A DNA stretch of 64,000 bases from Deltaproteobacteria bacterium (GTDB lineage Bacteria > Myxococcota_A > Polyangia > Polyangiales > Houyiibacteriaceae). Position 1 is the first letter of the stretch. The number at the start of each line of letters is the position of its first letter. Under the pieces are notes generated by a model. That model ran no database searches, was not told the DNA's origin, and saw only the letters and a list, made by a program, of their open reading frames with translations. The position numbers and the translations under genes were made by a program. Of this stretch, positions 34,371 through 49,761 are shown piece by piece. Location of the stretch: assembly GCA_034670305.1 (NCBI GenBank), contig JAXMNT010000013.1:1-64000 (forward strand), written 5' to 3'.

Positions 34371-37300
34371 CTATGGGCAGAGGGTGCCTGCCCCGGTGTT
34401 GGCGTCGCCCCAGCCCTGCTCGAGCACGCCGCTCGGGCTCGCGCCCCAAGCGGTGAGCGCGGCGCAGGGGTCGAGGACGAAGGCATCCGTCCCGAAGTTG
34501 GCCCGCTCGTCGAAGGTGCCCGAGCCGGTCGGGTTGCCGTAGAGCAGCGGGTGGACGGGCGTGAATGCGTCGTACATCTCCCACTGGTCGACGACTTCGC
34601 TGGTCGTCCCATTGTCCACGATGACGTATACGATCGGGTTCACCCCTCGGTAGTCGACGGCGAACCCGAAGGTGGCGCTCATGTTGGTGTACGGGGTGAT
34701 GTAGATGATGTTCTGCCACATGCCGCCGCTCGTGTTGATCGAGATGCTGGGCGGGACGTTGTCGGCGCTGTAGGGGTTGAGGTCCCCGTCCCAGATCGCG
34801 ACGCCGCCGCCCTGGTTCACGGTGCCCCCGAGGCGGGTGAGCTCGTAGTACCAGAACTCGCCGTAGAGCCCTTGGTTGGCGCGGATGCCCATCTTGTCGA
34901 CGGCCACCCACTGCGCGCTGCGCGCGTCGCCGCTGAGCACGATGCCGGCCCCGCGGTTCGGGTCGGTGAGATCGAGCTCGACCGGATCGAACTGCGGAAG
35001 CGTGCCGGTCACGGTGACGAGCACGATCGCCTGTCGGCGTCCGCCGTCCGAATCGGTGATGGTCGCCCGAAGCGGATGCAGACCGAGCTGGGTGGGGGTC
35101 ACGGTGAACGATCCCCCTGAGCCGGAGACCCGCTCGTTGTACACGGTCGCCATGTCCTCCCACTGAATCATGGAGGTCAGCGTTCCGTCCTCGGCGTCGG
35201 AGGCGGTCGCGGTGACGGTCACCGGAGAGCCGAGCGCGATGGACTGGTCGGAGCTCACACTCAGCGTCGGCCGCGTGTTCAGCGTGCCCATGCCGGTGTC
35301 GCCGAAGCCCAGCACGAGGTTGTCGGCCACCTCCTCCAGCGGGTCCGAAGCGCTCGGATCGTCGGCCCGCAGGATCGCCTCCGGGTCGTAGTAGAACGGC
35401 CGGTTGGTCGTGTCGTTGCCGAAGTTGATCGACGCCTCCGGACCGACCTTGCGGCGGGCGCCCGTCAACATCACGTGCAGCGGCGCCGTCATCATGTTCA
35501 TCGTCACGCTGGCTTCCACGATGGGCGTTCCGTAGTTGTCGACGATCATATGCACGATCGGGTTCGCGCCGCGGTAGTCGACGACGAACCCGTAGGTGTC
35601 GGTGGAGTAGCGATCGAAGCCGCCGAGGTACCCGCCGTTGTAGAAGTAGGACCCCCCGGTGTCGGTGGAGAAACCGTCTCCGTCTTGGCCCGGGAACGAG
35701 TGGAAGGCGATCGTGGTTCCGCCAACGCCGATGTTCATCAACCCGAGCGGCGTGTTCACACACCCTTCGGGCGCTTCGGTTGCGTCGCAGTCGTGCGGAC
35801 GGATGGTGCCTTCGAAGTAGTAGACCTCGGTCCCACCGCTCGCGACGGAGCAGTCGGAGCGCACGCCCGATGCGTTCAAAGAGTTCCACTCGATCGATTG
35901 GCCGTCCGCGCTGACGACGAGGTCCGTGTCCGGGCTCTTGTCGGTGCGGCTGAGCTCGCAATGGAAGGTGCCCGGGGCGGTGGTGACCACCATGTCCATC
36001 GCGATGTCCGTGAACCCATTGGCGTCCGTGACCCGCTGCCGGACCGTGTACGTGCCCGCGTCGGTGTACGTGTGCGCGGTCGCCGCCGCGAACCCGCCGC
36101 CCTCGCCGAAGTCGTAGTGCGTCTGCGTGATCGCCGCGTCTCCCGCGGTGGCCATGCTCGACACCGTGACCATGACTGGCGTCGTGCCACTCGTCGGTGT
36201 GACCGTGAACGCCGCCGTCGGTCCGATGACGCAGGTGTTGCCCACGCAGCCGTCGGTGGCGCAGTCGCCCGCACCCACGCACATGTCGCCGCGTGCACAG
36301 CCGGGGCAGCTGCTGCCGCAGTCGGTGTCGGTCTCGGTCCCGTTCATGATCCCGTCGGAACACGAGGGGCCCTGGCAGACCATGCCGGTGCAGACGCCGC
36401 TGTCGCAGTCCGCGCCGATGCCGCACGCGTCGCCGGGCATACACGCGGAGCAGCTGCCGCCACAGTCGTTGTCGGTCTCGTCGCCGTTGAGCACTCCGTC
36501 GGTGCAGCTCGGCGCCGCGCACGTCATGCCCATGCACACGCCGCTCGTGCAGTCGGTCCCGCCGACACACATGTCGCCCACGCCGCAGTCGGCACAGGTG
36601 CCACCACCGCAATCGTCGTCGGTCTCGTCGCCGTTCGTCACACCGTCCGAACACGTCGGGGTCTGGCAGATCATGCCGCTGCAGACGCTGCTCGCGCAGT
36701 CGGCCGCCCCGCCACAGGCGCCACCGTCCGCGCATCCCATGCAGCCGCCGCCGCAGTCGACGCCGGTCTCGGCGCCGTTCATGACGCCATCGGTGCAGCT
36801 CGCGGAGCACATCATCGCGGTGCACGCTCCGGTGACGCAGTCGCTGCCGCGCTCACATCCGGCGCCGAGCGAACACGCATCGCAACCGCCGCCGCAATCG
36901 GTGTCGGTCTCACTTCCGTTGCGGACTCCGTCGTCACAGGCGGGCGACGCACAGAACCCGCCGGTGCACACGGCCGAGATGCAGTCCATGCCGTCGCCGC
37001 AGCGCTGCCCGACCCCACACACACCACAGCTGCCGCCACAGTCGACGTCGGTCTCGTCGCCGTTCCGCACGCCGTCGCCGCAGCCGGCCGCCACACACAT
37101 GCCGTCGATGCTGCACACCGAGGTGCTGCAGTCGCCACCCACCGCGCAGCCCTCGCCGAGCCCGCACGTGCCGCAGCGCGTGCCGCCACAGTCCACGTCC
37201 GTCTCGCCACCGTTCTGGGCTCCGTCGCTGCAGGTTGCGGCCACACAGAATCCGCCGCTGCAGACCGACTCGACGCAGTCGGTGCCGCCGCCACAGCGCT

Positions 37301-38837
37301 GACCCACCGCGCAGGCGCCGCAGCTGCCGCCGCAATCGACATCGGACTCGTCGCCGTTGCGCACGCCGTCCGTACACGCGGCCATCGCGCAGACGAGACC
37401 CACGCACGTCCCGGTCGAACAATCGCCACCCAGCACACACATGTCGCCGAGTCCGCACGGGTCGCATCGGCCGCCGCCGCAGTCCACGTCGGTCTCCGCG
37501 CCGTTGCGTTCCCCATCAGCGCACGACGGGCTCGCGCAGAACCCATCGGTGCAGACCGTGGTCACGCAATCCATGCCTTCGCCGCAGCGTTGGCCCACCG
37601 AACAATCGGCGCAGCTGCCGCCGCAGTCCACGTCGGTCTCGTCTCCGTTGCGCACGCGGTCCCCGCAGCCCGAGGCCACGCAGACGTCCGCGGCACACAC
37701 GCCACTGCGGCAGTCGGCACCGACATCGCAGCCCTCGGCGTCGTCGCAGGGGTCGCAGCGACCACCGCAGTCCACGTCGGTCTCTCCCCCGTTCTGCACC
37801 GCGTCGGTGCAAGTCGCCGTTTGACAGACCACGTCGCACACCCCGCTCGCGCAGTCCGCGGCCACGCCGCACGCGCGATCGACCGGACAGACGCTGCAGC
37901 TGCCGCCACAGTCGACATCGGACTCGTCGCCGTTCTGACGCCCATCGGCACAACTCGCGCTCACACAGACCGCGAGGCTGCAGACCCCACTGCCGCAGTC
38001 GGTCGGTGCGTCGCAGTTGGATCCATCCGAGCACACGGGACACGACCCACCGCAATCGATGTCGCTCTCGTCCCCGTTGCGGATGCTGTCGGAACAGGAG
38101 GGCGCGGCGCAGACGCTGCCTTCACAGATCCGACTCTCGCAATCGTCGGGGACCTCGCACGCCAGGCCCACACCGCACGCGCCGCAGTCGGGCCCACCGC
38201 AATCGGTCGCGGTCTCGTCGCCGTTCTGGGTTCCGTCGCCGCAGGAGGCGAGCACGCAAATGCTGTCCTGACACACGCCGCTCGCGCAATCGGTGCCGCC
38301 CATGCACATCGCGTCGACCGAACAACCATCGCAGGGGCCACCACAGTCGACGTCCGATTCGGTCCCGTTCTGGACACCGTCCGCGCAGGACGCGGTGGCG
38401 CAGGTGCCCGCATCGCAGACGCCGCTCGCGCAGTCGGTGCGGCTGTCACAGGACAGGCCGTCGGCGCAAGCGCCGCAGTCCGGACCGCCGCAGTCGACAT
38501 CGGTCTCCGAACCACTGCGCGTTCCATCGGCGCAGCCCGCGCCGCCGCAGCGACCGTCCACACAGAGCCCGCTCATGCAGTCCGGCCCCATCGCGCACTC
38601 CTGCCCCTCGACACACGCCAGACAGCTCCCCCCGCAGTCCAGGTCGGTCTCGTCGCCGTTCCGGATTCCGTCGTCGCACTCGGCCGGGACACACGTCCCA
38701 TCCGTGCACCGCTCGCCGGTCGCGCAGTCCGTCGCGACGACGCACTCGGGCCCCGACGCGTCGTCGTCGCCACATGCGAGCACGAACACCAGACCAAGAG
38801 ACAAGAAAACACGTGAAGACGCGGCTGTAGTGCGCAA
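34371..38837 (-). CDS. giant Cys-rich surface lipoprotein: 17 CxDGxxNGxETDVDCGG repeats, PKD, two SPRY-like domains and an Ig-like domain
   Basis: Lipobox VLAC-GDDD; repeats counted in the translation; PKD YDFGEG...HTY...GTY; duplicated LS/VS.D...G.R...YY.E...GF.VDYRG.NPIV...NFG. Start re-called at TTG 38837 with GGAGG RBS. Confidence 0.88.
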   Translation of the reverse strand: MRTTAASSRVFLSLGLVFVLACGDDDASGPECVVATDCATGERCTDGTCVPAECDDGIRNGDETDLDCGGSCLACVEGQECAMGPDCMSGLCVDGRCGGAGCADGTRSGSETDVDCGGPDCGACADGLSCDSRTDCASGVCDAGTCATASCADGVQNGTESDVDCGGPCDGCSVDAMCMGGTDCASGVCQDSICVLASCGDGTQNGDETATDCGGPDCGACGVGLACEVPDDCESRICEGSVCAAPSCSDSIRNGDESDIDCGGSCPVCSDGSNCDAPTDCGSGVCSLAVCVSASCADGRQNGDESDVDCGGSCSVCPVDRACGVAADCASGVCDVVCQTATCTDAVQNGGETDVDCGGRCDPCDDAEGCDVGADCRSGVCAADVCVASGCGDRVRNGDETDVDCGGSCADCSVGQRCGEGMDCVTTVCTDGFCASPSCADGERNGAETDVDCGGGRCDPCGLGDMCVLGGDCSTGTCVGLVCAMAACTDGVRNGDESDVDCGGSCGACAVGQRCGGGTDCVESVCSGGFCVAATCSDGAQNGGETDVDCGGTRCGTCGLGEGCAVGGDCSTSVCSIDGMCVAAGCGDGVRNGDETDVDCGGSCGVCGVGQRCGDGMDCISAVCTGGFCASPACDDGVRNGSETDTDCGGGCDACSLGAGCERGSDCVTGACTAMMCSASCTDGVMNGAETGVDCGGGCMGCADGGACGGAADCASSVCSGMICQTPTCSDGVTNGDETDDDCGGGTCADCGVGDMCVGGTDCTSGVCMGMTCAAPSCTDGVLNGDETDNDCGGSCSACMPGDACGIGADCDSGVCTGMVCQGPSCSDGIMNGTETDTDCGSSCPGCARGDMCVGAGDCATDGCVGNTCVIGPTAAFTVTPTSGTTPVMVTVSSMATAGDAAITQTHYDFGEGGGFAAATAHTYTDAGTYTVRQRVTDANGFTDIAMDMVVTTAPGTFHCELSRTDKSPDTDLVVSADGQSIEWNSLNASGVRSDCSVASGGTEVYYFEGTIRPHDCDATEAPEGCVNTPLGLMNIGVGGTTIAFHSFPGQDGDGFSTDTGGSYFYNGGYLGGFDRYSTDTYGFVVDYRGANPIVHMIVDNYGTPIVEASVTMNMMTAPLHVMLTGARRKVGPEASINFGNDTTNRPFYYDPEAILRADDPSASDPLEEVADNLVLGFGDTGMGTLNTRPTLSVSSDQSIALGSPVTVTATASDAEDGTLTSMIQWEDMATVYNERVSGSGGSFTVTPTQLGLHPLRATITDSDGGRRQAIVLVTVTGTLPQFDPVELDLTDPNRGAGIVLSGDARSAQWVAVDKMGIRANQGLYGEFWYYELTRLGGTVNQGGGVAIWDGDLNPYSADNVPPSISINTSGGMWQNIIYITPYTNMSATFGFAVDYRGVNPIVYVIVDNGTTSEVVDQWEMYDAFTPVHPLLYGNPTGSGTFDERANFGTDAFVLDPCAALTAWGASPSGVLEQGWGDANTGAGTLCP

Positions 38838-38987
38838 GAAAACCCCTCCGATAGGCTCGGAGTATACGCAGAAATCGCACGCTTGCCCCTGTTCATGCCC
38901 GCAGCGCGCCAGGCTCGCCTCGCGACCTCTCGCGAGGTTTCTGGGAAACACGTTGACGCGTCGGGCGGAAACGCCCAGCGTTTGGGC

Positions 38988-39980
38988 ATGCTCGACATCG
39001 CCCGCCTGCAGCGGATTCGGTTGAGTTCGCGCCCAACCATTCAGCGGGCCGTGGCGATGGGGTGGTTGTGGCCGACCTACAACCTCCCCGGTCGGCGCGT
39101 GAAGATTCGATTCGAGGACTTCGATCGCGTGCCGGACGAGCCGGTCATCTACGCGATGAACCACACGGACCGGTTCAACTACTGGCCGTTTCAGTATCGT
39201 TTGTTCCGGAAGCACGACCGCTACACCGCGACCTGGGTGAAGGGGAAGTACTACGAGAGCCAGGGGGTCGGGAAGTTCATGGAACTGACCAACAACCTCC
39301 CGACCGTCTCGCGCGGGTACCTGATCGCCAAGGACTTCACCCGGACGATCGGGCGGCGACCGTCGGACGAGGAGTACACCGCGATGCGCGACGCCATCGA
39401 CGCGGCGTCTCGCGGGCAACAGGCCACCGATTCGATTCTCCCGCGCGCGCTGCACACCACGCCACGGGACATGCTCGGGCGGGCGTTCGATCCGGCCCGC
39501 GAATCGTGGGCAGAAGCCATCAACGAACTGTTCGCCGTAATGATGCGGCGGTTCGTCGAGCTGCACGACGAGGTCTTCGAAAACGGGCTCGATCTGTTGA
39601 TCTTCCCGCAAGGCACCCGATCGATTCGGCTCAGTGCCGGGCGCATCGGCATCGCGCAGATCGCGATGAAGTACCGAAAAACCATCGTGCCGATTGGCTG
39701 CAACGGCTCTGAAGTCCTCTACCCAGGCGGCAACCCGCTCGCCCGGGGCGGCGAAGTGACCTACCGGTTTGGCCACCCGATCCGCCCCGCGGACTACGCC
39801 GATGTGCAGGTGGATGGGTTCACCCCCTTCCACCCACCGGACGAACACACCCACCGTCCACAGTTTCAGGCGCTCGTCGATCGTGTGATGACCGCCATCG
39901 ACGGATTGCTCGACCCGCGCTATCGCTTTGGGGACGACCCGTCCGCAGACGGTGTGTCCGGCACCGACCGATTCCTATGA
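38988..39980 (+). CDS. PlsC-like lysophospholipid acyltransferase
   Basis: AMNHTDRFN, IFPQGTRS, IVPIG, FG.PI; start re-called at ATG 38988. Confidence 0.82.
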   Translation: MLDIARLQRIRLSSRPTIQRAVAMGWLWPTYNLPGRRVKIRFEDFDRVPDEPVIYAMNHTDRFNYWPFQYRLFRKHDRYTATWVKGKYYESQGVGKFMELTNNLPTVSRGYLIAKDFTRTIGRRPSDEEYTAMRDAIDAASRGQQATDSILPRALHTTPRDMLGRAFDPARESWAEAINELFAVMMRRFVELHDEVFENGLDLLIFPQGTRSIRLSAGRIGIAQIAMKYRKTIVPIGCNGSEVLYPGGNPLARGGEVTYRFGHPIRPADYADVQVDGFTPFHPPDEHTHRPQFQALVDRVMTAIDGLLDPRYRFGDDPSADGVSGTDRFL

Positions 39981-42634: not shown

Positions 42635-43894
42635 TCAGCCGCTGTCGCCGCCGAAGATGCGGTGCTCCAGGGTGTCGGCGTACTGACATGCCTGGAAGAT
42701 GAGGGCCGCGACGTCCATGTCCCGTACGCGCGAAAGCGGGAGGAATCCCTGCGTCACGATCTTGGGCATCTCTTTTTCGCTCTCGACCAAGGTCGCCCGG
42801 GCGTAGCGGTTGGCGGGAATGCCACTGAGCAACATCTGGCTGTTCACCACGCTGCTCAACTCACCCACGTCACACTCCACGCCGAGCACGAGTTCGCCTT
42901 CACAGAACGGCTCGGATGCATCGACGAGGAAGACGCGGGCGCGGTGCCAGCGTTTCTCACCGAGCGGAACGTCGAGGTCGACGCCGCCGTCGTCCTTCTT
43001 CGCGAGCTGCTTCGCACGGAGGATCGACACGACGCCCTCGAGCCGTTTGGGCAGGTCGCCCATGCGTCCGGCCGCCGCAGCGGAGGCCAACGGCGAATGC
43101 CGGATCTCGAGCGGCGCGGGCACCGGAGTGTCCGTCAACAGGTAACGGCGCAGCAGATCGTCGAGGTCCGTGTCGGACTCGTCTTTCGGCGTCAGGAAGT
43201 CCACCGCCCGATCGATCGTCACCGGTCGACCCCACCCGACCACGAGCGGTCCGCCACCGAGCGCGGCGCGCCAAGTACGCGAGCACGAGCCGGTGTAACA
43301 AGCCGCGAACACTACGAGCTTGAGCCCCGCGTGGACCTTGTCCGAGTCGATGTCGGCCGGCTGAACCGCGCCGCCATCGCTGCACTCGATCGCGCCGTCG
43401 TCGTGTCCGTGCGCGAGCCAGAACACACCGGCCGGCACGAGTCCCTCCACGCCCTCTGCGGTTCCGTAGACGGCGCCCGTGAAGTCGTCGTGCACCGCTT
43501 CTTCGTCGACCACGCAGGTGTAGCCCACCTTGCGGAGCTCCTCGACGTCGTCGTTGATGTGCTCGCGTGCTTCCCCGAAGAGGCGCCGGTCGTTCGGCGA
43601 GTGGATCTTCAGCCCGAACAGGAAGTGGAAGACCTTGCCGTCTCCGATGCCGGTTCCGCTCGGCGCGAGCACGGTGCGTTTGTCCGGGTTGTCCGAGCGC
43701 GCTCCATCGGACCACGCTTTCGCGCCCGACTTCTTCTTCTCTTCCCAGCCTTCGGGTTTCTTGAGTTCTTTTTTCTCCGGCTTGGCTTCCGCCTTGGCCT
43801 CGGCCGGCTTGGCTGCCTCGGCAGGCTTGTCGCCGTCCGTGGCTGCGCCATCCTTGCCAAAACCGCCCTTGCCTTCTTTGCTCCAGCTACTCAT
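42635..43894 (-). CDS. caspase/CHAT-like peptidase domain fused to a YbjN/CesT-like domain
   Basis: GVFWLAHG and LVVFAACYT (His-Gly and Ala-Cys dyad), VVGW..PV; C-terminal AD.LE.RIFGGD like the upstream gene. Start at ATG 43894. Confidence 0.7.
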   Translation of the reverse strand: MSSWSKEGKGGFGKDGAATDGDKPAEAAKPAEAKAEAKPEKKELKKPEGWEEKKKSGAKAWSDGARSDNPDKRTVLAPSGTGIGDGKVFHFLFGLKIHSPNDRRLFGEAREHINDDVEELRKVGYTCVVDEEAVHDDFTGAVYGTAEGVEGLVPAGVFWLAHGHDDGAIECSDGGAVQPADIDSDKVHAGLKLVVFAACYTGSCSRTWRAALGGGPLVVGWGRPVTIDRAVDFLTPKDESDTDLDDLLRRYLLTDTPVPAPLEIRHSPLASAAAAGRMGDLPKRLEGVVSILRAKQLAKKDDGGVDLDVPLGEKRWHRARVFLVDASEPFCEGELVLGVECDVGELSSVVNSQMLLSGIPANRYARATLVESEKEMPKIVTQGFLPLSRVRDMDVAALIFQACQYADTLEHRIFGGDSG

Positions 43895-43990
43895 CGCGGA
43901 TCCTCGCTTGTCGGTGGGGCGCGGAGCATATCGCACGCGTGGTGCCGTGGGAACGAAGCGTTTCGCAGGTCTGGCTGGGGACTGTTAACG

Positions 43991-44023
43991 AAAAAAGCGC
44001 CGACCGAAGTCGACGCTGTTTTC
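43991..44023 (-). terminator. intrinsic terminator
   Basis: Minus strand agcgtcgac-ttcg-gtcggcgct followed by a U-run; C(UUCG)G tetraloop. Confidence 0.88.
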
Positions 44024-44039
44024 GATTGGTGATCGTCTC

Positions 44040-44426
44040 TCAGAACTGGTCGGACGCGGCGAACTCTTGCTCGAGCTTGTCCGCGGTGCTCGCCACGACG
44101 TGAAGCGGAAGCTCGAACTCTTCCATATCCATCGTCGCCATCTGCACGCTGTAGCGCACGATGTAGATGTCCCGGTCGAGGCAGAGTGCACCAACGGCGA
44201 ACTGGAAGTTCTTCCGGAGGGCGACCTCGGGGTTCATCTGGTTGAGCTTGCAACAGGCGGAAGCGAAGTCACACCACTCACGGTTGAGTGCCTCGAACTT
44301 CGAGATGATGACCGCTTGCAGCCGCTTGTTCTGGTACTCGAAGACCAGCTTGAAGCTGTTATCCTTATCTTCCGCGAGCTTGTACTTGGAGCGCGCGTAT
44401 TCTTGAACTTCGGGCCAAGTCGGCAT
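44040..44426 (-). CDS. stand-alone YbjN/CesT-like (T3SS chaperone fold) protein
   Basis: MPTW..V..Y.RS.Y...R.Q.V...EW....S...AL..N.....GAL...EFE.PL.VVA.TAD.LE.....DQF; AGAGGG RBS. Confidence 0.75.
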   Translation of the reverse strand: MPTWPEVQEYARSKYKLAEDKDNSFKLVFEYQNKRLQAVIISKFEALNREWCDFASACCKLNQMNPEVALRKNFQFAVGALCLDRDIYIVRYSVQMATMDMEEFELPLHVVASTADKLEQEFAASDQF

Positions 44427-44580: not shown

Positions 44581-46161
44581 TTAGGACACCCGCCACCGCG
44601 CGCTGAGCAGCAGGTCGTCCCCATCCGGCATGGCGATCACGTGGGCGTCCTCGCACCCGATCAGCTCGAGCCCGCGCTCCAAGTACCCACAGATGCGGTC
44701 GGCGATGGCGGTCGGGAAAATCTGCCCCTCCCGGATGCGAAGCACGGCGGCGGTCTCGGTGATCTCGTCCACGAACCACTCCCCGACGTCGTAGTAGAGG
44801 CGGTAGATCTCGGCGGCCGTCGCGAGGAAGGGCGCCACCCCCTCACGCAATCCTTGCCGCCGGAACACATCGTACGGCCCTCCGTCGCCGAACGCGTAGT
44901 CCGCGCTCGCCGCACCGATGCGCACCGCCAAGGGCACTTCCTCCGGTTCCGCGAAGAGCTGCTGCGCCGCTTCGGTGAGCGCAAGCATCACCTCGCCGTC
45001 GTACCAGCTGGAGACGAGCACCGGTTTCGCCAGTGCAGCCTGAACGCGCTCGTTCGCGATCTCCACCACGCGAGCGAACCCCTCTTCGCCGTAGCAGGCC
45101 TGGATGTATTCGATGGTCGCTTTGATGGCGGCCCCTTTGACGTGCCACGTCCGCCCACGCCCGCCCTCGCGTGCGGTGCCAAGCGTGTCTTTCGCGTCGT
45201 CAAGCGCACGCGACCGTTCCAGTGCCTTCTCGATCATGCCGCGCCGCGCACGCCGCTCCCGTTCAAAGAACGACGCGGTGTAGTCGCCGACGTGAATGCG
45301 GCCCTCGTCCGCGGCGAGCGCATCCACGACCGCGCCGAGCCGATCGGCGACGAGACCCGCGGTCGGTGGGCGGGCCTCCGGTCGTTTCGCGAGGAGTTCG
45401 AAGAGGAGCTGGACCACATCCGGTGGCACGTCCTCTCGCTCGTCCATGATGTCCGCCGGGGGTTCGTGGAGGATGCGGCGCGCGCCCTCCGTCCCGTCCG
45501 ACCCATGGTAGAGGCGCCTGCCGGCGAGGCACTCCCAGAGGATGACCCCGAGCGCGAACAGGTCCGCCCGCCGGTCGGGTGGTTCGAAGCGCAGTTGTTC
45601 GGGCGCCATGTAGCCGACCTTGCCCTTGAGCATTCCGGTCGATGTCTCGCTGCGTCCCTCCATCGGATTGAGTGGCTTCGCGATTCCGAAATCGGCGATG
45701 CGTACGACGCCCGAGTAGTCGACGAGGATGTTCTGCGGCGACACGTCTCGGTGGACGACCAGCAGGCCACCTTGATCGTGGATCGCGTGGAGCCCAGCCG
45801 CGATTTGGCGCAGCGACTCCAGGCAGATCTGTACAGGCACCTCTTCGTCGAGCCGTTTGACCGCCGACACCAGTTCGGCGAGCGAGCATCCTTCGACGTA
45901 CTCCATCGCCAGGAAGGGCCCGTCTTCGTCCTCTCCGTTCTCGATCACCCGCAGCACGTTCGGATGTTCGACGTGCCCCGCGAGGGTCGCCTCCGCGCCG
46001 AGGGTCTGGCGCGCGCGTGCGTCCTCCCGCAGGTGCGGATGCAGCCGCTTGACCGCAAAGAGCGCCCCCGAGTCGTCGCCGCGCCGGACGGCGACGTAGA
46101 CGCGCCCCATGCCCCCACTGTTGATCTCGCAGAGGTGACGGTAGCCCCGAGCCTTGCCCAT
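44581..46161 (-). CDS. Hanks-type Ser/Thr protein kinase with a C-terminal myxobacterial DUF2378-like domain
   Basis: GGMGRVY, AVK, HRDVSPQN, DFG, YMAPE, D.FALG; C-terminal VKG......SSWY domain; no TM segment. Confidence 0.93.
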   Translation of the reverse strand: MGKARGYRHLCEINSGGMGRVYVAVRRGDDSGALFAVKRLHPHLREDARARQTLGAEATLAGHVEHPNVLRVIENGEDEDGPFLAMEYVEGCSLAELVSAVKRLDEEVPVQICLESLRQIAAGLHAIHDQGGLLVVHRDVSPQNILVDYSGVVRIADFGIAKPLNPMEGRSETSTGMLKGKVGYMAPEQLRFEPPDRRADLFALGVILWECLAGRRLYHGSDGTEGARRILHEPPADIMDEREDVPPDVVQLLFELLAKRPEARPPTAGLVADRLGAVVDALAADEGRIHVGDYTASFFERERRARRGMIEKALERSRALDDAKDTLGTAREGGRGRTWHVKGAAIKATIEYIQACYGEEGFARVVEIANERVQAALAKPVLVSSWYDGEVMLALTEAAQQLFAEPEEVPLAVRIGAASADYAFGDGGPYDVFRRQGLREGVAPFLATAAEIYRLYYDVGEWFVDEITETAAVLRIREGQIFPTAIADRICGYLERGLELIGCEDAHVIAMPDGDDLLLSARWRVS

Positions 46162-46212: not shown

Positions 46213-47910
46213 GTGGGACTTGGGCATGGCATCGCGGTTAAGAAGATGGACATAGCGACAACCGGCGCAGAGGTGCACGAAGCCGTGTGCCGGGGCGCAC
46301 TTCGTGGGCTGGGCCGCGCGATCGCATCGCTGCAGCAAGACGGGTCCGAACTGGCGTCGGCATGGAGCGCGGCGATCGCGGGCGCGAGGGCGCTGGTCGA
46401 CGCCGAGGCCAAGCACCTGCCCGCCGACCTCGAGGCGCTGCGCGCGTTCGTCGGCGCACCCGTCGAAGTCCGGCGCGTGGCGTCGACTGCGTGCGTCCAC
46501 CTGGAGCGGGCGGCGCTCGTCGGATGGGACGCTGCGGAGTTGCGCGCGATCGCCGCCCTGCACCGCGAGCTGCTGGCCGCCGACAAGACACCAGACGGCC
46601 ACATCGAGCGGTCGGTGTCCCGGGTCGAGGCTTGGATCCAGTTGCTCGAAGGCGACGTCGCAGGGCTGGAGGCGATCGGCAAACGCATCTACGCCGAGGG
46701 CGCGTCGGCTCAGGATGCGTCGCTGGTCATCGACGCCACCCTCCTGCGCGCGATGGCGGCGCTCACCAAACGCGACGCCGACGACGCCAAGGCCCTTGCC
46801 CGCCGAGCCTCTCGCATGGCGCGCACCGAAGGCCTTCGGCCCGAGCGGTATCTGGCCAGCATCGTGCTGGCACGGGTTCGGCGCCGGGGCGCGCGCCCCC
46901 ACCTGGCCACCCGGATCCTCAGCGCCATCATTCCCATCGCACCGCCTCGCTGGCAGGGCTGGTTGCGCTGGGAGCGGCTGCTGGCGGGATGGCGGCCAGG
47001 CGTCTCGTCGTCGGCGTCCGAAGTGCGCGAGGCGTTGGCGCTCGCGCCGGACACGCCCTCGTCTCGGGCGGCGCGGGGACTCGTCGAATGGCTCGCCGCC
47101 GCGTCGGAAGGAAACGCTGCGGACGTCGCCGCCGCACGCGCCGGCGTGGCCAAGGAGACCGCGCAGTTCGACGACATGGCCCAAGAGCAGGTCGCGCTCG
47201 CGGCCTGCCTCGACCCATCGCTCGATGCGGATGGCTGCCCCGACGTGGTGGTGCCCTGGGTCGTCGGGGACGACGACGACACCCCGGCGGGCCTGCACGG
47301 CATCGTCGGCAACCCCGACGGTCCCGCCGACTCGACGATCGCATGCGTCGTCTGCCGACCCGACCGCAAGCCGAGGCGCATCCTGCGCATCGCGGTTCCG
47401 CTCATCGAGACGGAGACCGAGATCATTCGATTGCAACGCACGCGCCTGAGGCGCGGCCGCGTCGACACCGCGGTGGCCGCGCTCGCGCTCGCGGGCCCGG
47501 AGGGCTTGCCGGATCCAGAGCTCTTCGAGCGCGCGTACGAGTTCGAGTTCGTGCCCGCGCTGCACGCGGGCATCCTGGACGTCCTGGTGCACCGCATGCG
47601 GGCGCGCCTGGACACCGCCGCGACCGTGCACCGCAAGTCCGGCCGGCTGCGGCTCGAACCGCACGGCACCCTGGTGCTGCCCGATCCTCGGTGCGTGGAA
47701 CACGTGGAGGACCGGCTCCTGCGGGTGATCGCACGCCACGGCGGCGTGACGACGCGGCAAGCCGCCCAAGAACTCGACGTCTCGGTGCGCACCGCGCAGC
47801 TGGCGCTGCGGCGGCTTCTGGCTTCTGGAGACTGCGTGCTCAACCGCGATGGTCGCCGCGTGCAGTACATCGTCGAAGACACCACCTTCACCGAACCGAC
47901 GCGGTTCTGA
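46213..47910 (+). CDS. helical protein with C-terminal winged-helix/HTH domains, putative regulator
   Basis: Ala-rich helical N-terminus, LF...Y...LDVLVHRMRARL (OmpR-like wHTH), TTRQAAQELDVSVRTAQLAL (HTH); start uncertain. Confidence 0.65.
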   Translation: MGLGHGIAVKKMDIATTGAEVHEAVCRGALRGLGRAIASLQQDGSELASAWSAAIAGARALVDAEAKHLPADLEALRAFVGAPVEVRRVASTACVHLERAALVGWDAAELRAIAALHRELLAADKTPDGHIERSVSRVEAWIQLLEGDVAGLEAIGKRIYAEGASAQDASLVIDATLLRAMAALTKRDADDAKALARRASRMARTEGLRPERYLASIVLARVRRRGARPHLATRILSAIIPIAPPRWQGWLRWERLLAGWRPGVSSSASEVREALALAPDTPSSRAARGLVEWLAAASEGNAADVAAARAGVAKETAQFDDMAQEQVALAACLDPSLDADGCPDVVVPWVVGDDDDTPAGLHGIVGNPDGPADSTIACVVCRPDRKPRRILRIAVPLIETETEIIRLQRTRLRRGRVDTAVAALALAGPEGLPDPELFERAYEFEFVPALHAGILDVLVHRMRARLDTAATVHRKSGRLRLEPHGTLVLPDPRCVEHVEDRLLRVIARHGGVTTRQAAQELDVSVRTAQLALRRLLASGDCVLNRDGRRVQYIVEDTTFTEPTRF

Positions 47911-47925
47911 GGTCTGGGGGATGGC

Positions 47926-49761
47926 GTGCTGAAGCGGTTGAAGGACCTGGCCGGGGCGGTGGGGAGCGCCGCCATCGGCACCGCAGGCGACTTCGTGCGC
48001 GGCGTCTCCCGGGAGACCTACCGACAAGCCATTGCGAGCGAGCTCGCGCTCTTGCCTCGGCTCGCGACCGAGACCCTGCCCTGGCTCGTGCGTTCCACCC
48101 TCCGCGGCACCGTGCTCGACGCCGTCGTGCGCCACGCCGCCAAGACCCCCCATGCGCACGCGCTCCGCCAGGAGGACGCGCGCTGGACCTGGGCCGAACT
48201 CGACGCGTGCACTTCGCGTGTGGCGTGGACGCTCGAACGGCACGGGGTTCGGCGCGGCGATGTGGTCGCTCTGCTCGGCCCCAACGCGCCGGAGTACATC
48301 GGTTGGGTGCTCGGCTGCACCCGGATCGGCGCCACGTGCGCCCTGTTGAACACGCATCTCGAAGCCGGCCCGCTGGCGCACGCCATCCGAGCGTCCGCCG
48401 CACGGCTGACCATCGCGCACGACCGGTTCTCCAGCCGGGTGGAGGCGCTCGGTTTGGAGACGCCGACGCTCGTCTACGGCCGCGCCGAAGCGCCCTGGGC
48501 CGACGCACCGAGCGCGCCCTACCCGCCCGCCGTCGTCGACGCGGAAGCGGACTACGTCTACATCTTCACCTCCGGCACCACCGGCTTTCCCAAGCCATGC
48601 CGCATCTCGCACGGCCGAGCGCTCATGGCCGGCGCGGGGTTCGCGGCTCTGATGTTCCGCTACCAGCCGGGCGACGTGCTCTACAACGTGCTGCCGCTCT
48701 ACCACGCAAGCGGCTTGATGCTCGGCGCGGGCTCCGCGCTTCTGACGGGGACCGCGATGGCGATCCGCGACGGCTTCAGCGCGCGCAGCTTCTGGAGCGA
48801 TGTGCGCCGCTACGACGCGAGCGCCATCGTCTACATCGGTGAGCTCTGCCGGTACCTCGTCAACAACGACCCCCAGCCGGACGAACGATCGCACCGGGTG
48901 CGGGTCGCGGTGGGCAACGGGCTGCGATCCGATGTGTGGCCGACCTTCGAAGCGCGGTTCGGCATCCCGGAGATCCGCGAGTTCTACGGCGCGACCGAGG
49001 CGCCCGGCGCCATCATGAACCTCACCGGGCGGGTGGGATCGGTCGGGCGGGTGCCGGTGCGGCGGAGCGGCCAGATGGTGCTCGTCCGGTACGACGTGGA
49101 CCGCGACGAACACCTTCGCGATCCGAGCGGCCATTGCATCGAGTGCGAAGCGGACGAAGTCGGCGAGTTGCTCGTGCGGCTCGCCGCCCAGCCTCTGACG
49201 GCGGCAGGCGAGTACCGCGGCTACACCGACGCGGGCGCCACCCAGTCGAAAATCTTGGAGCACGTGTTCGCGCCCGGCGACAAGTACTTCCGGACCGGGG
49301 ATCTCCTGCGACGCGACGAAGACGACTACTTCTACTTCGTCGACCGGATCGGAGACACGTTCCGCTGGAAGGGCGAGAACGTCTCGACCGCAGAGGTCGC
49401 AGACACCGTGGCCCGCGTCCCCGGCGTCGCGGAGGCGACCATCGTCGGGGTCGAGGTTCCGGGCATGGACGGACGCGCCGGCCTCGCCGCGCTCGTGCTC
49501 GAACCGGATGCGGCGTTCGACGGAGGCGCCTTCTTCGCCGCGATCCAGGAACTGCCCGCGTATGCGCAGCCGGTGTTCGTCCGCTTGATCGGCGCGCTGG
49601 AGACGACCGGCACCTACAAGATCCAGAAGGGGCGCATCCGAAAAGACGGATGCGACCCGAGCGCCATCGAAGACAGCCTCTACGTGAGAACCGGTGACAC
49701 GTACGTCACGCTGGACACGGCGATGTACGCCCGGCTGCGCGCGGGCGAACTGCGGCTCTGA
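47926..49761 (+). CDS. long-chain acyl-CoA synthetase (FATP/FadD6-like)
   Basis: IFTSGTTGFPK, YIGELCRYL, EFYGATE, FRTGDL, DRIGDTFRWKGENVST. Confidence 0.95.
   Translation: MLKRLKDLAGAVGSAAIGTAGDFVRGVSRETYRQAIASELALLPRLATETLPWLVRSTLRGTVLDAVVRHAAKTPHAHALRQEDARWTWAELDACTSRVAWTLERHGVRRGDVVALLGPNAPEYIGWVLGCTRIGATCALLNTHLEAGPLAHAIRASAARLTIAHDRFSSRVEALGLETPTLVYGRAEAPWADAPSAPYPPAVVDAEADYVYIFTSGTTGFPKPCRISHGRALMAGAGFAALMFRYQPGDVLYNVLPLYHASGLMLGAGSALLTGTAMAIRDGFSARSFWSDVRRYDASAIVYIGELCRYLVNNDPQPDERSHRVRVAVGNGLRSDVWPTFEARFGIPEIREFYGATEAPGAIMNLTGRVGSVGRVPVRRSGQMVLVRYDVDRDEHLRDPSGHCIECEADEVGELLVRLAAQPLTAAGEYRGYTDAGATQSKILEHVFAPGDKYFRTGDLLRRDEDDYFYFVDRIGDTFRWKGENVSTAEVADTVARVPGVAEATIVGVEVPGMDGRAGLAALVLEPDAAFDGGAFFAAIQELPAYAQPVFVRLIGALETTGTYKIQKGRIRKDGCDPSAIEDSLYVRTGDTYVTLDTAMYARLRAGELRL

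Follow-up and report, generated by a model that had tools for sequence, protein, structure and literature searches.

In the 64,000-nucleotide stretch of DNA analysed here (the window; positions 1 to 64,000 of contig JAXMNT010000013.1, assembly GCA_034670305.1, from a Deltaproteobacteria bacterium), three genes follow one another on the minus strand: a Ser/Thr kinase gene at 44581-46161, a gene for a 128-residue protein at 44040-44426 and a gene for a 419-residue protein at 42635-43894. The latter two are the subject of this work. The small gene encodes P0002, a free protein of the TY-chaperone fold, a superfamily name taken from Iyer et al. (Viruses 2022, PMC9503650). It runs from an ATG at 44426, with a GAGGGG Shine-Dalgarno sequence ahead of it, to a stop codon at 44040-44042. 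The larger gene encodes P0001, in which a caspase-like protease domain is fused to a second domain of the TY-chaperone fold. Its ATG lies at 43894 with a GAGGA Shine-Dalgarno sequence 7 nt upstream, and its stop codon is at 42635-42637. The homologues of P0001 begin at the same M-S/T-x-W as the window protein.

P0001 opens with a low-complexity head of about 60 residues rich in Lys, Glu, Ala and Pro (43715-43894, minus strand), which is predicted to be disordered, the AlphaFold2 (AF2) pLDDT being below 50 for residues 1-55. The protease domain follows (residues 73-260; 43115-43678, minus strand). It holds the putative catalytic His162 in a His-Gly sequence (codon 43409-43411) and the putative catalytic Cys199 in an Ala-Cys-Tyr sequence (codon 43298-43300), both assigned from the alignment and the model. 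The TY-chaperone-fold domain makes up the C-terminus (residues 277-415; 42650-43066, minus strand). An earlier note, made from the letters of the window and its reading frames, had proposed a caspase/CHAT-like protease with a CesT/YbjN-like C-terminal domain beside a free copy of that domain; the strand and place of both genes and the two dyad codons agree exactly with what it gave.

The small gene and the protease gene are separated by 145 nt in the window. A terminator-like hairpin with a 9-bp stem, a TTCG loop and a T6 run lies in this gap (43986-44017, minus strand), 23 nt past the small-gene stop. Terminator-like sites in the region number three as against 2.7 expected, a count that is not significant by itself; the hairpin is notable by its position and quality only, and is a lead rather than a result. 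As a predicted terminator, it may let the small gene be transcribed independently of the protease.

Relatives of P0001 number 129 at E ≤ 1e-3, and 121 sequences were used for the family-wide residue counts. The named relatives come mostly from metagenome-assembled genomes (MAGs) of Myxococcota, with a few cultured actinomycetes; two of the actinomycete proteins are labelled 'CHAT domain-containing' or 'caspase family' by their source records. H162, G163, C199 and Y200 are invariant, both in the 33 aligned homologues and in all 121 family members. The residue before Cys199 is Ala in 111 members and Ser in 10. D102 and D130 of the protease domain are kept in every family sequence that covers them, and K59, R66, D68, D69, P70 and R73, just after the disordered head, are nearly invariant in the alignment. 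In the AF2 model of P0001 (mean pLDDT 83.7, pTM 0.78), an alpha/beta domain spans residues 73-260 and a second domain residues 277-415. His162 follows the strand 153-160 and Cys199 the strand 193-197, which is the order of the caspase fold; this placement of the dyad comes from the strands of the model and the alignment rather than from a residue-level superposition on a solved enzyme.

Structure comparison places the protease domain in clan CD. In VIA searches, the best match to residues 83-260 is the SAVED-CHAT chain 8tl0_D (Z 11.9, root-mean-square deviation 3.0, 155 residues aligned, 17% identity), with gingipain RgpB (4ief_D, Z 9.5), legumains (Z 8.2-8.7) and caspases (Z 7.8-8.2) among the other matches. 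All matches to clan-CD enzymes fall on residues ~81-260, and Foldseek agrees, giving a probability of 1.00 for both 8tl0_D and 1m72_A. The SAVED-CHAT protease of type III CRISPR signalling (8tl0) shares with P0001 the order of the His/Cys dyad and the fusion of the protease to a separate regulatory or oligomerising domain. Unlike it, the window protein carries neither SAVED nor another nucleotide sensor and has no CRISPR context, and its regulator would be the C-terminal TY fold. With caspases, metacaspases, gingipains and legumains P0001 shares the caspase-hemoglobinase fold (Z 8-9.5), with the His after strand 3 and the Cys after strand 4, but the window domain is minimal (~190 residues), lies below the Pfam thresholds and appears to be acidic rather than basic at the presumed S1 position.

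The divergence is also seen in the family searches. P0001 matched no Pfam family, CHAT (PF12770) and Peptidase_C14 (PF00656) included, and no NCBIfam family at E ≤ 1; for P0001 and P0002 together, the same libraries at this threshold yielded nothing except one chance-level match to DUF3990. Relatives come closer to the curated cut-offs, with 16.5 bits against 21.4 for Peptidase_C14 in P0046 and 13 bits against 23 for Peptidase_C25 in P0084. Phmmer and profile searches of the PDB sequences gave no relevant match for either window protein. The domain is of the clan-CD fold with an intact His/Cys dyad, is too divergent for the curated hidden Markov models (HMMs) and is apparently that of an active protease. 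The structure matches and the invariant dyad bear out the caspase/CHAT-like fold and conserved His/Cys of the earlier note, and the fold searches that it had suggested for both domains return clan-CD enzymes for residues 83-260 and TY chaperones for residues 277-415 and for P0002.

The N-terminus of the family is variable, and SHOCT-like or FHA modules replace or precede the head in some relatives. A SHOCT-like helix occurs in many of them (SHOCT at 4.8e-5 in P0102 and DUF1707 at 2e-3 in P0046, both below the Pfam cut-off), and one cluster has a genuine FHA domain at the N-terminus (P0064, Pfam FHA at 5.7e-10). The FHA domain of P0064 is the sole hint of a phospho-signalling input, and the kinase in the window is not involved. 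Two apparent extensions of the architecture were set aside. P0371 (738 residues), the only longer fused form found, is labelled T2SSF by Pfam and may result from two genes being called as one; in P0105 the similarity ends after residue 242 and gives way to FHA-GGDEF on a single contig, which is probably a chimera or a frameshift.

The model of P0002 is confident (pLDDT 92.9) and has the topology alpha-beta4-alpha-beta2-alpha. Its top 36 VIA rows are all class I chaperones of type III secretion systems (T3SS) or members of the YbjN family, with Z from 9.3 to 13.3, and the next entry falls to 6.1. ExsC, SycT, CesT, SycN-YscB, YbjN and 2plg are found among its VIA and Foldseek matches. Residues 277-415 of P0001 match the same superfamily (Z 9-12.4), with PA14_16140 at Z 12.4, VecA at 10.6, 2plg at 10.5, CesT at 10.0 and YbjN at 9.4. 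The succession that marks the TY topology (a helix, a beta-meander, a short helix, a beta-hairpin and a long C-terminal helix) is present in both P0002 and residues 277-415 of P0001. Both domains thus share the fold of the TY-chaperone superfamily, which includes CesT, SycE, SycT and ExsC as well as YbjN, AmyR, DR_1245 and PA14_16140, with Z up to 13.3 for the free copy and 12.4 for the fused copy. The window family differs from these known members in that it has motifs of its own, passes no curated cut-off and has one copy fused to a protease.

The small family is large, with 98 close homologues of P0002 and 996 clusters at 50% identity (E ≤ 1e-3). P0002 itself matched no TY family of Pfam or NCBIfam. 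Among 37 members scanned, Pfam matches are all below threshold (CesT_Tir_1 in 10 of 37, with a best E of 0.0045, CesT in 3, YbjN in 3 and TY-Chap1 in 2), and none of the 37 passes a curated cut-off for CesT, YbjN, TY-Chap1 or CesT_Tir_1. The name Imm53, given automatically to the nearest Atlas cluster (score 0.95), was rejected: Imm53 is absent among the Pfam families at E ≤ 1 in the 37 members, and the consensus has no PGW, an element of the Imm53 motif W, WE, PGW, W as set out in the family descriptions of Zhang et al. (2012, PMC3482391). The small TY domain also occurs in fusions that carry no protease domain (P0259, P0298, P0339, P0366 and P0367). In four of these (P0298, P0339, P0366 and P0367), the TY domain stands behind an acidic linker, and the N-terminal 140-240 residues have no Pfam match; P0298 and P0339 share their N-terminal module.

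The relationship between the fused and the free TY domain becomes visible at the level of families. BLASTP of P0001 against P0002 gave no match, and hhalign of the two domains with narrow alignments was weak (E 0.034, probability 1.5%). With broad profiles, built from 236 small-family sequences and from the last 145 residues of the protease family, hhalign gave a probability of 94.6% and an E of 6.8e-8 over 110 collinear columns. The small-family HMM, used in hmmsearch, finds 57 of the 121 protease-family members at E ≤ 1e-3, 80 at 0.01 and 18 at 1e-5, and all of these matches sit at the extreme C-terminus of the protease; the best E among 242 reversed or shuffled controls was 5.8. The C-terminal domain of P0001 and the small protein also have in common a terminal A-D-x-L-E ... 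G-D motif. On these profile comparisons, the fused TY domain and the free small protein are judged true homologues and paralogous. The parallel that the earlier note had drawn by eye between the two is thereby upheld, and the motifs on which it relied (R.Q / R.H and ADxLE...GD) coincide with those aligned by the profiles.

To characterise the linkage of the two genes, we collected 58 protease loci, with one genome per species and flanks of 6 kb. The small gene is found in the flank of 54 of them. In 28 of the 54 it lies upstream on the same strand, and in the other 26 it lies downstream and convergent. The 28 comprise the close relatives of the window, one Nannocystaceae locus and all 16 actinomycete loci. 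Two of the four loci without a flanking small gene are on truncated contigs, and a whole-genome search recovered the small gene elsewhere or on another contig in three of the four genomes, which brings the total to 57 of 58 genomes. The junction in the actinomycetes is TGATG, in which the stop of the small gene overlaps the start of the protease, in 16 of 16 loci, with the frame confirmed by script in 10; the database proteins P0113 and P0123 begin at the ATG of this sequence. Such an overlap in every locus implies that translation of the two genes is coupled in the actinomycetes. The two genes are inherited and transferred together, and the pairing seen in the window recurs well beyond it, a recurrence on which the earlier note had made its proposal depend.

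The linkage also bears on the possibility that P0001 is a secreted effector and P0002 its type III secretion chaperone. SycT, a chaperone of this class, serves the cysteine protease YopT. The small protein has the fold of a class I T3SS chaperone, its gene lies beside that of a protease with a disordered N-terminus, and the window genome has one FHIPEP (SctV/FlhA-type) export gene. The pair, on the other hand, is translation-coupled in Gram-positive actinomycetes, one of which (G301) has no FHIPEP gene at all, the presumed effector itself bears a chaperone-fold domain, and secretion genes are not conserved nearby. We regard this explanation as highly improbable.

The small gene is much the commoner of the two. 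Each is present once in the window genome. Four sequencing runs, all from one plastic-metagenome study that may be where the window came from, contain this DNA; no RNA run containing it is listed. Among 301 sampled genomes of the same phylum, 4 have the protease and 50 the small gene; of the 17 other members of the window's own family among them, one has the protease and all 17 the small gene. For 151 genomes of the actinomycete family of locus L037, the counts are 5 for the protease, one of them a fragment with a stop codon, and 23 for the small family. That fragment (G419, contig C1, 959326-959946; profile positions 197-403) has an internal TAA, its genome yielded no small gene at E ≤ 1e-5, and it is apparently a decaying copy. 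Tandem pairs of unlike small paralogues occur in five genomes (G191, contig C40, 110830-111617; G161, C41, 6976-7762; G271, C2, 322652-323445; G251, C23, 25926-26718; G038, C170, 23700-24496). These pairs show that the family tends toward pairs of unlike subunits, and they are a possible free heterodimeric form of it. Near the three tandem pairs examined, there is a glutamine-synthetase-like gene in G191 and G271 and a gene for a large Golvesin_C/Amidase_3 protein in G161 and G271.

How might the two proteins work together? Caspase-fold proteases are switched on by proximity, and TY chaperones are dimers, sometimes heterodimers, that clamp extended peptides. SycN-YscB (1xkp) is a case in which two unlike TY subunits make up one peptide-binding unit, and its chain 1xkp_C matches P0002 with Z 12.2 and the fused TY domain with Z 9.9. 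The window pair, whose association is a proposal, differs from SycN-YscB in that an enzyme is covalently attached to one of the subunits and no link to a secretion system is implied. We think it fairly probable that P0001 and P0002 bind each other through their TY domains, and slightly more than half of that probability goes to a net effect as a brake rather than as delivery of substrate. Either way, the pairing probably controls when the protease cuts or what it cuts.

As a tentative preference among several readings, we propose a self-contained, two-gene intracellular protease module in which the free TY protein pairs with the fused TY domain and acts mainly as a brake. The free protein would pair with the TY domain of the protease in the manner of the unlike subunits of SycN-YscB. 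The heterodimer would keep the protease monomeric or occluded, preventing a TY-mediated self-association that would otherwise activate two caspase-like domains; there is precedent in the title of entry 8tl0, which describes a CHAT protease as an 'activated filament'. Release would come once the free TY protein is drawn off by an extended-peptide client of its own, or is scarce. Since the small protein is conserved in genomes that lack the protease, we infer a separate function for it, and the protease appears to have acquired its TY copy to plug into the system of the small protein. The invariant Asp102, which presumably sits where caspases carry the Arg that binds P1, hints at cleavage after basic residues.

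We favour the brake because the presumed keeper is encoded first, is translationally coupled to the enzyme in the actinomycetes, is probably in excess and is far more widespread than the enzyme. The asymmetry of 4 against 50 in the 301 genomes would be typical of a dangerous enzyme and its keeper, and the terminator-like hairpin would help the small protein to outnumber the protease. Type II toxin-antitoxin systems and separase-securin offer analogies, with a small gene just upstream and coupled (as in all 16 actinomycete loci) and a keeper more widespread than the enzyme. Here, unlike in those systems, the keeper is conserved and syntenic alone, and convergent and distant layouts are common in the non-actinomycetes; toxicity and neutralisation would apply by analogy only. 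With regard to a layout of the type II kind, the window has the 145-nt gap with its hairpin, 26 of the 54 linked loci are convergent and the 16 actinomycete loci have TGATG.

An adaptor role for the small protein fits nearly as well as a brake, and we regard it as a serious minority candidate. The free and the fused TY domain would form a peptide clamp that feeds an extended client to the active site, and the small protein would be an activator or specificity factor. Several of the matched TY chaperones have been solved with effector peptides, going by the entry titles (ExsC-ExsE, CesT-Tir, SycN-YscB-YopN and SycH-YopH). That the small protein also exists independently of the protease implies that it has its own clients. 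The protease, as expected if it is useless alone, almost never occurs without the small protein, and coupled translation in the actinomycetes suits an obligate 1:1 complex. No client could be identified for such a clamp, with no third gene conserved beside the pair, and the patchy, loss-prone distribution of the protease is explained no better by an adaptor than by a brake.

A number of observations weigh against the brake. The linkage pattern fits an adaptor equally well. The spacing of the pairs is looser than in classical toxin-antidote pairs: outside the actinomycetes, the myxobacteria included, the two genes often converge, at distances within the flanks of up to ~5.6 kb, and in the genome of locus L034 they are ~11 kb apart on the same contig. 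In pairwise distances, the small protein tracks the two protease domains equally well (r of 0.77 and 0.78, partial r of 0.30 and 0.34), so that these distances reveal no domain-specific co-variation of the small protein with either domain. Against the small-family profile, the TY domain of P0001 itself scores no better than E 3, on its last helix, and its homology therefore rests on transitivity through its family. Moreover, the small protein persists, conserved and in synteny, in genomes that lack the protease; being commoner than the protease and conserved alone, it is not simply a dedicated partner or antidote.

The head of P0001 and the acidic residues of its protease domain raise another possibility. 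The fused TY domain might homodimerise by itself and bind the Lys/Arg-rich tail of the protease itself, with self-cleavage relieving an auto-inhibition, or it might recruit the small protein for cleavage. The disordered head of ~60 residues followed by the near-invariant K59, R66, D68, D69, P70 and R73 would suit such a role, as the invariant acidic D102 and D130 would suit basic P1 residues. T3SS effectors, for their part, bind their chaperones via N-terminal extended segments. The idea is pure inference, and the small protein has a compact fold, modelled with confidence (pLDDT 92.9), and no obvious exposed linker. We consider a substrate or pseudo-substrate role of this kind unlikely.

The protease is rare and patchy in its distribution. 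The pair is present in Acidobacteriota and Gemmatimonadota MAGs in addition to the two main phyla, and in cultured actinomycetes it is found in Catenuloplanes japonicus NRRL B-16061, Actinoplanes palleronii NBRC 14916 and Micromonospora gifhornensis NBRC 16317. In the family of L037, an intact protease and a myxobacterial-like subtype of the small protein (E ~1e-45, as against ~1e-23 for stand-alone copies) occur in the same four actinomycete genomes and in no others. This subtype lies directly upstream of the protease in three of the genomes and ~260 nt upstream in G380. In a quick, short and unrooted tree of the small proteins, the pair-linked copies of the actinomycetes group apart from the stand-alone actinomycete clade, which suggests that the linked copies arrived by transfer of the pair as a unit. 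In the same tree, linked and stand-alone small genes of the window's family (12 and 8, respectively) form one group with a support of 99. The small gene in this family stands in a context of AMP-ligase, HTH-protein and methyltransferase genes with or without the protease; judged from tree and context, the protease has come or gone there next to a small gene that stays in place. The surroundings of stand-alone small genes contain neither the protease nor a TY domain of the protease type, and they share no conserved neighbour. In relatives of the window, the stand-alone small gene adjoins a gene for a 571-residue protein with a weak C-terminal HTH_23 (L070) or AMP-binding enzymes (L066, L067 and L069) in a syntenic block.

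This distribution, rare and patchy within two phyla with scattered occurrences in the MAGs of two others, would suit an anti-phage or conflict system. As a special case of the brake, the pair would be a mobile switch of the abortive-infection type, in which the TY protein senses an invader polypeptide and unleashes the protease. The tree, in which the pair-linked actinomycete small proteins stand apart, points in the same direction by suggesting pair transfer. P0002 has weak partial matches to the PADLOC candidate families PDC-M13B (4.4e-4), PDC-M13A (7.5e-4) and PDC-M10A (3.2e-3) in PADLOC-DB 2.0, and an Eco57I-type methylase, a ResIII helicase or a PLD protein is encoded close by at some loci. 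The protease P0001, by contrast, has no PADLOC match at E ≤ 1, the neighbours are mostly housekeeping genes that differ between loci, tblastn found no match on plasmids or phages, and the small gene is a stable syntenic resident in the window's family. A defence role appears rather doubtful. Equally speculative is the broadest form of the idea, in which the pair would represent a new class of sensor. The free chaperone would block the dimerisation face of the fused TY domain; an unfolded polypeptide, from an invader or arising under stress, would capture the chaperone, and the protease would self-associate via TY and fire. Such a module, apparently of myxobacterial-lineage origin, would have passed into spore-forming actinomycetes and would move between phyla as a switch of cell fate or abortive infection.

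Our literature search found no description of an architecture that joins a caspase/CHAT-like protease and a TY domain, supplementary files lying outside the search, in line with the earlier note, which knew of none. The terms YbjN, CesT, SycE and 'secretion chaperone' are absent from PMC7159879 (eLife 2020) and PMC3482391 (Biol Direct 2012), supplements excluded. As far as the account of them in Iyer et al. (2022, PMC9503650) goes, the TY-Chap families occur in systems centred on ADP-ribosylglycohydrolases, and not with proteases. Both folds are well known, and a regulatory domain fused to a CHAT/caspase protease is a known theme; it is the pairing itself that is undescribed. Bacterial caspase-fold proteases are emerging as executioners in immunity and development, and the checks on them differ, from nucleotide sensors and TPR arms to CRISPR complexes. 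In the present pair, control would lie with a peptide-binding chaperone fold that occurs both fused to the enzyme and as a free protein, a simple means of making proteolysis depend on whether a chaperone is folded or occupied. The large stand-alone YbjN-like family of unknown function (the 996 clusters mentioned above) would also gain a first concrete partner and readout. The interest of the system is mainly that it is simple, conserved across phyla and directly testable, since cultured actinomycetes carry the pair.

No third gene is conserved beside the pair in the 58 loci, and the neighbours vary by clade. They are mostly housekeeping genes (MetRS, Sua5, CopCD, amylase and CoA transferase), with a methylase or a helicase at some loci. 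The earlier note had pointed to a Ser/Thr kinase directly upstream on the same strand. The gene is indeed there: P0003 (44581-46161, minus strand) has a Pkinase domain at residues 11-268, followed by ~190 residues without a family. Membership in the module did not hold up, and the kinase was rejected as a partner. An orthologue lies near the pair only in loci L001-L010, which belong to close kin of the window; L001 alone has it on the same strand, and in most of the others it is on the opposite one. One is also found near a stand-alone small gene in G059, and L021 and L073 carry unrelated kinases only. Residues 340-526 of P0003 have no match in Pfam or NCBIfam, and are conserved with the kinase in close relatives at 55-71% identity.

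On the other side of the pair, the open reading frame P0004 (42188-42592, minus strand) was also rejected as a part of the module, as it has no homologue in the 58 loci and no family. It would encode 134 residues with hydrophobic stretches and may not be a gene. Beyond the kinase, a gene for a 565-residue protein lies at 46213-47910 (plus strand), next to a reading frame at 47926-49761 (plus strand) that resembles AMP-dependent ligases; together with the genes beside the stand-alone small gene in L066, L067, L069 and L070, the two mark the syntenic block. Farther away, at 34371-39854 on the minus strand, a reading frame of 1827 residues strings together a large number of Cys-rich repeats (...NG.E.D.DCGG.C..C...) in tandem, after which come C-terminal domains without repeats, and its product looks secreted or surface-located.

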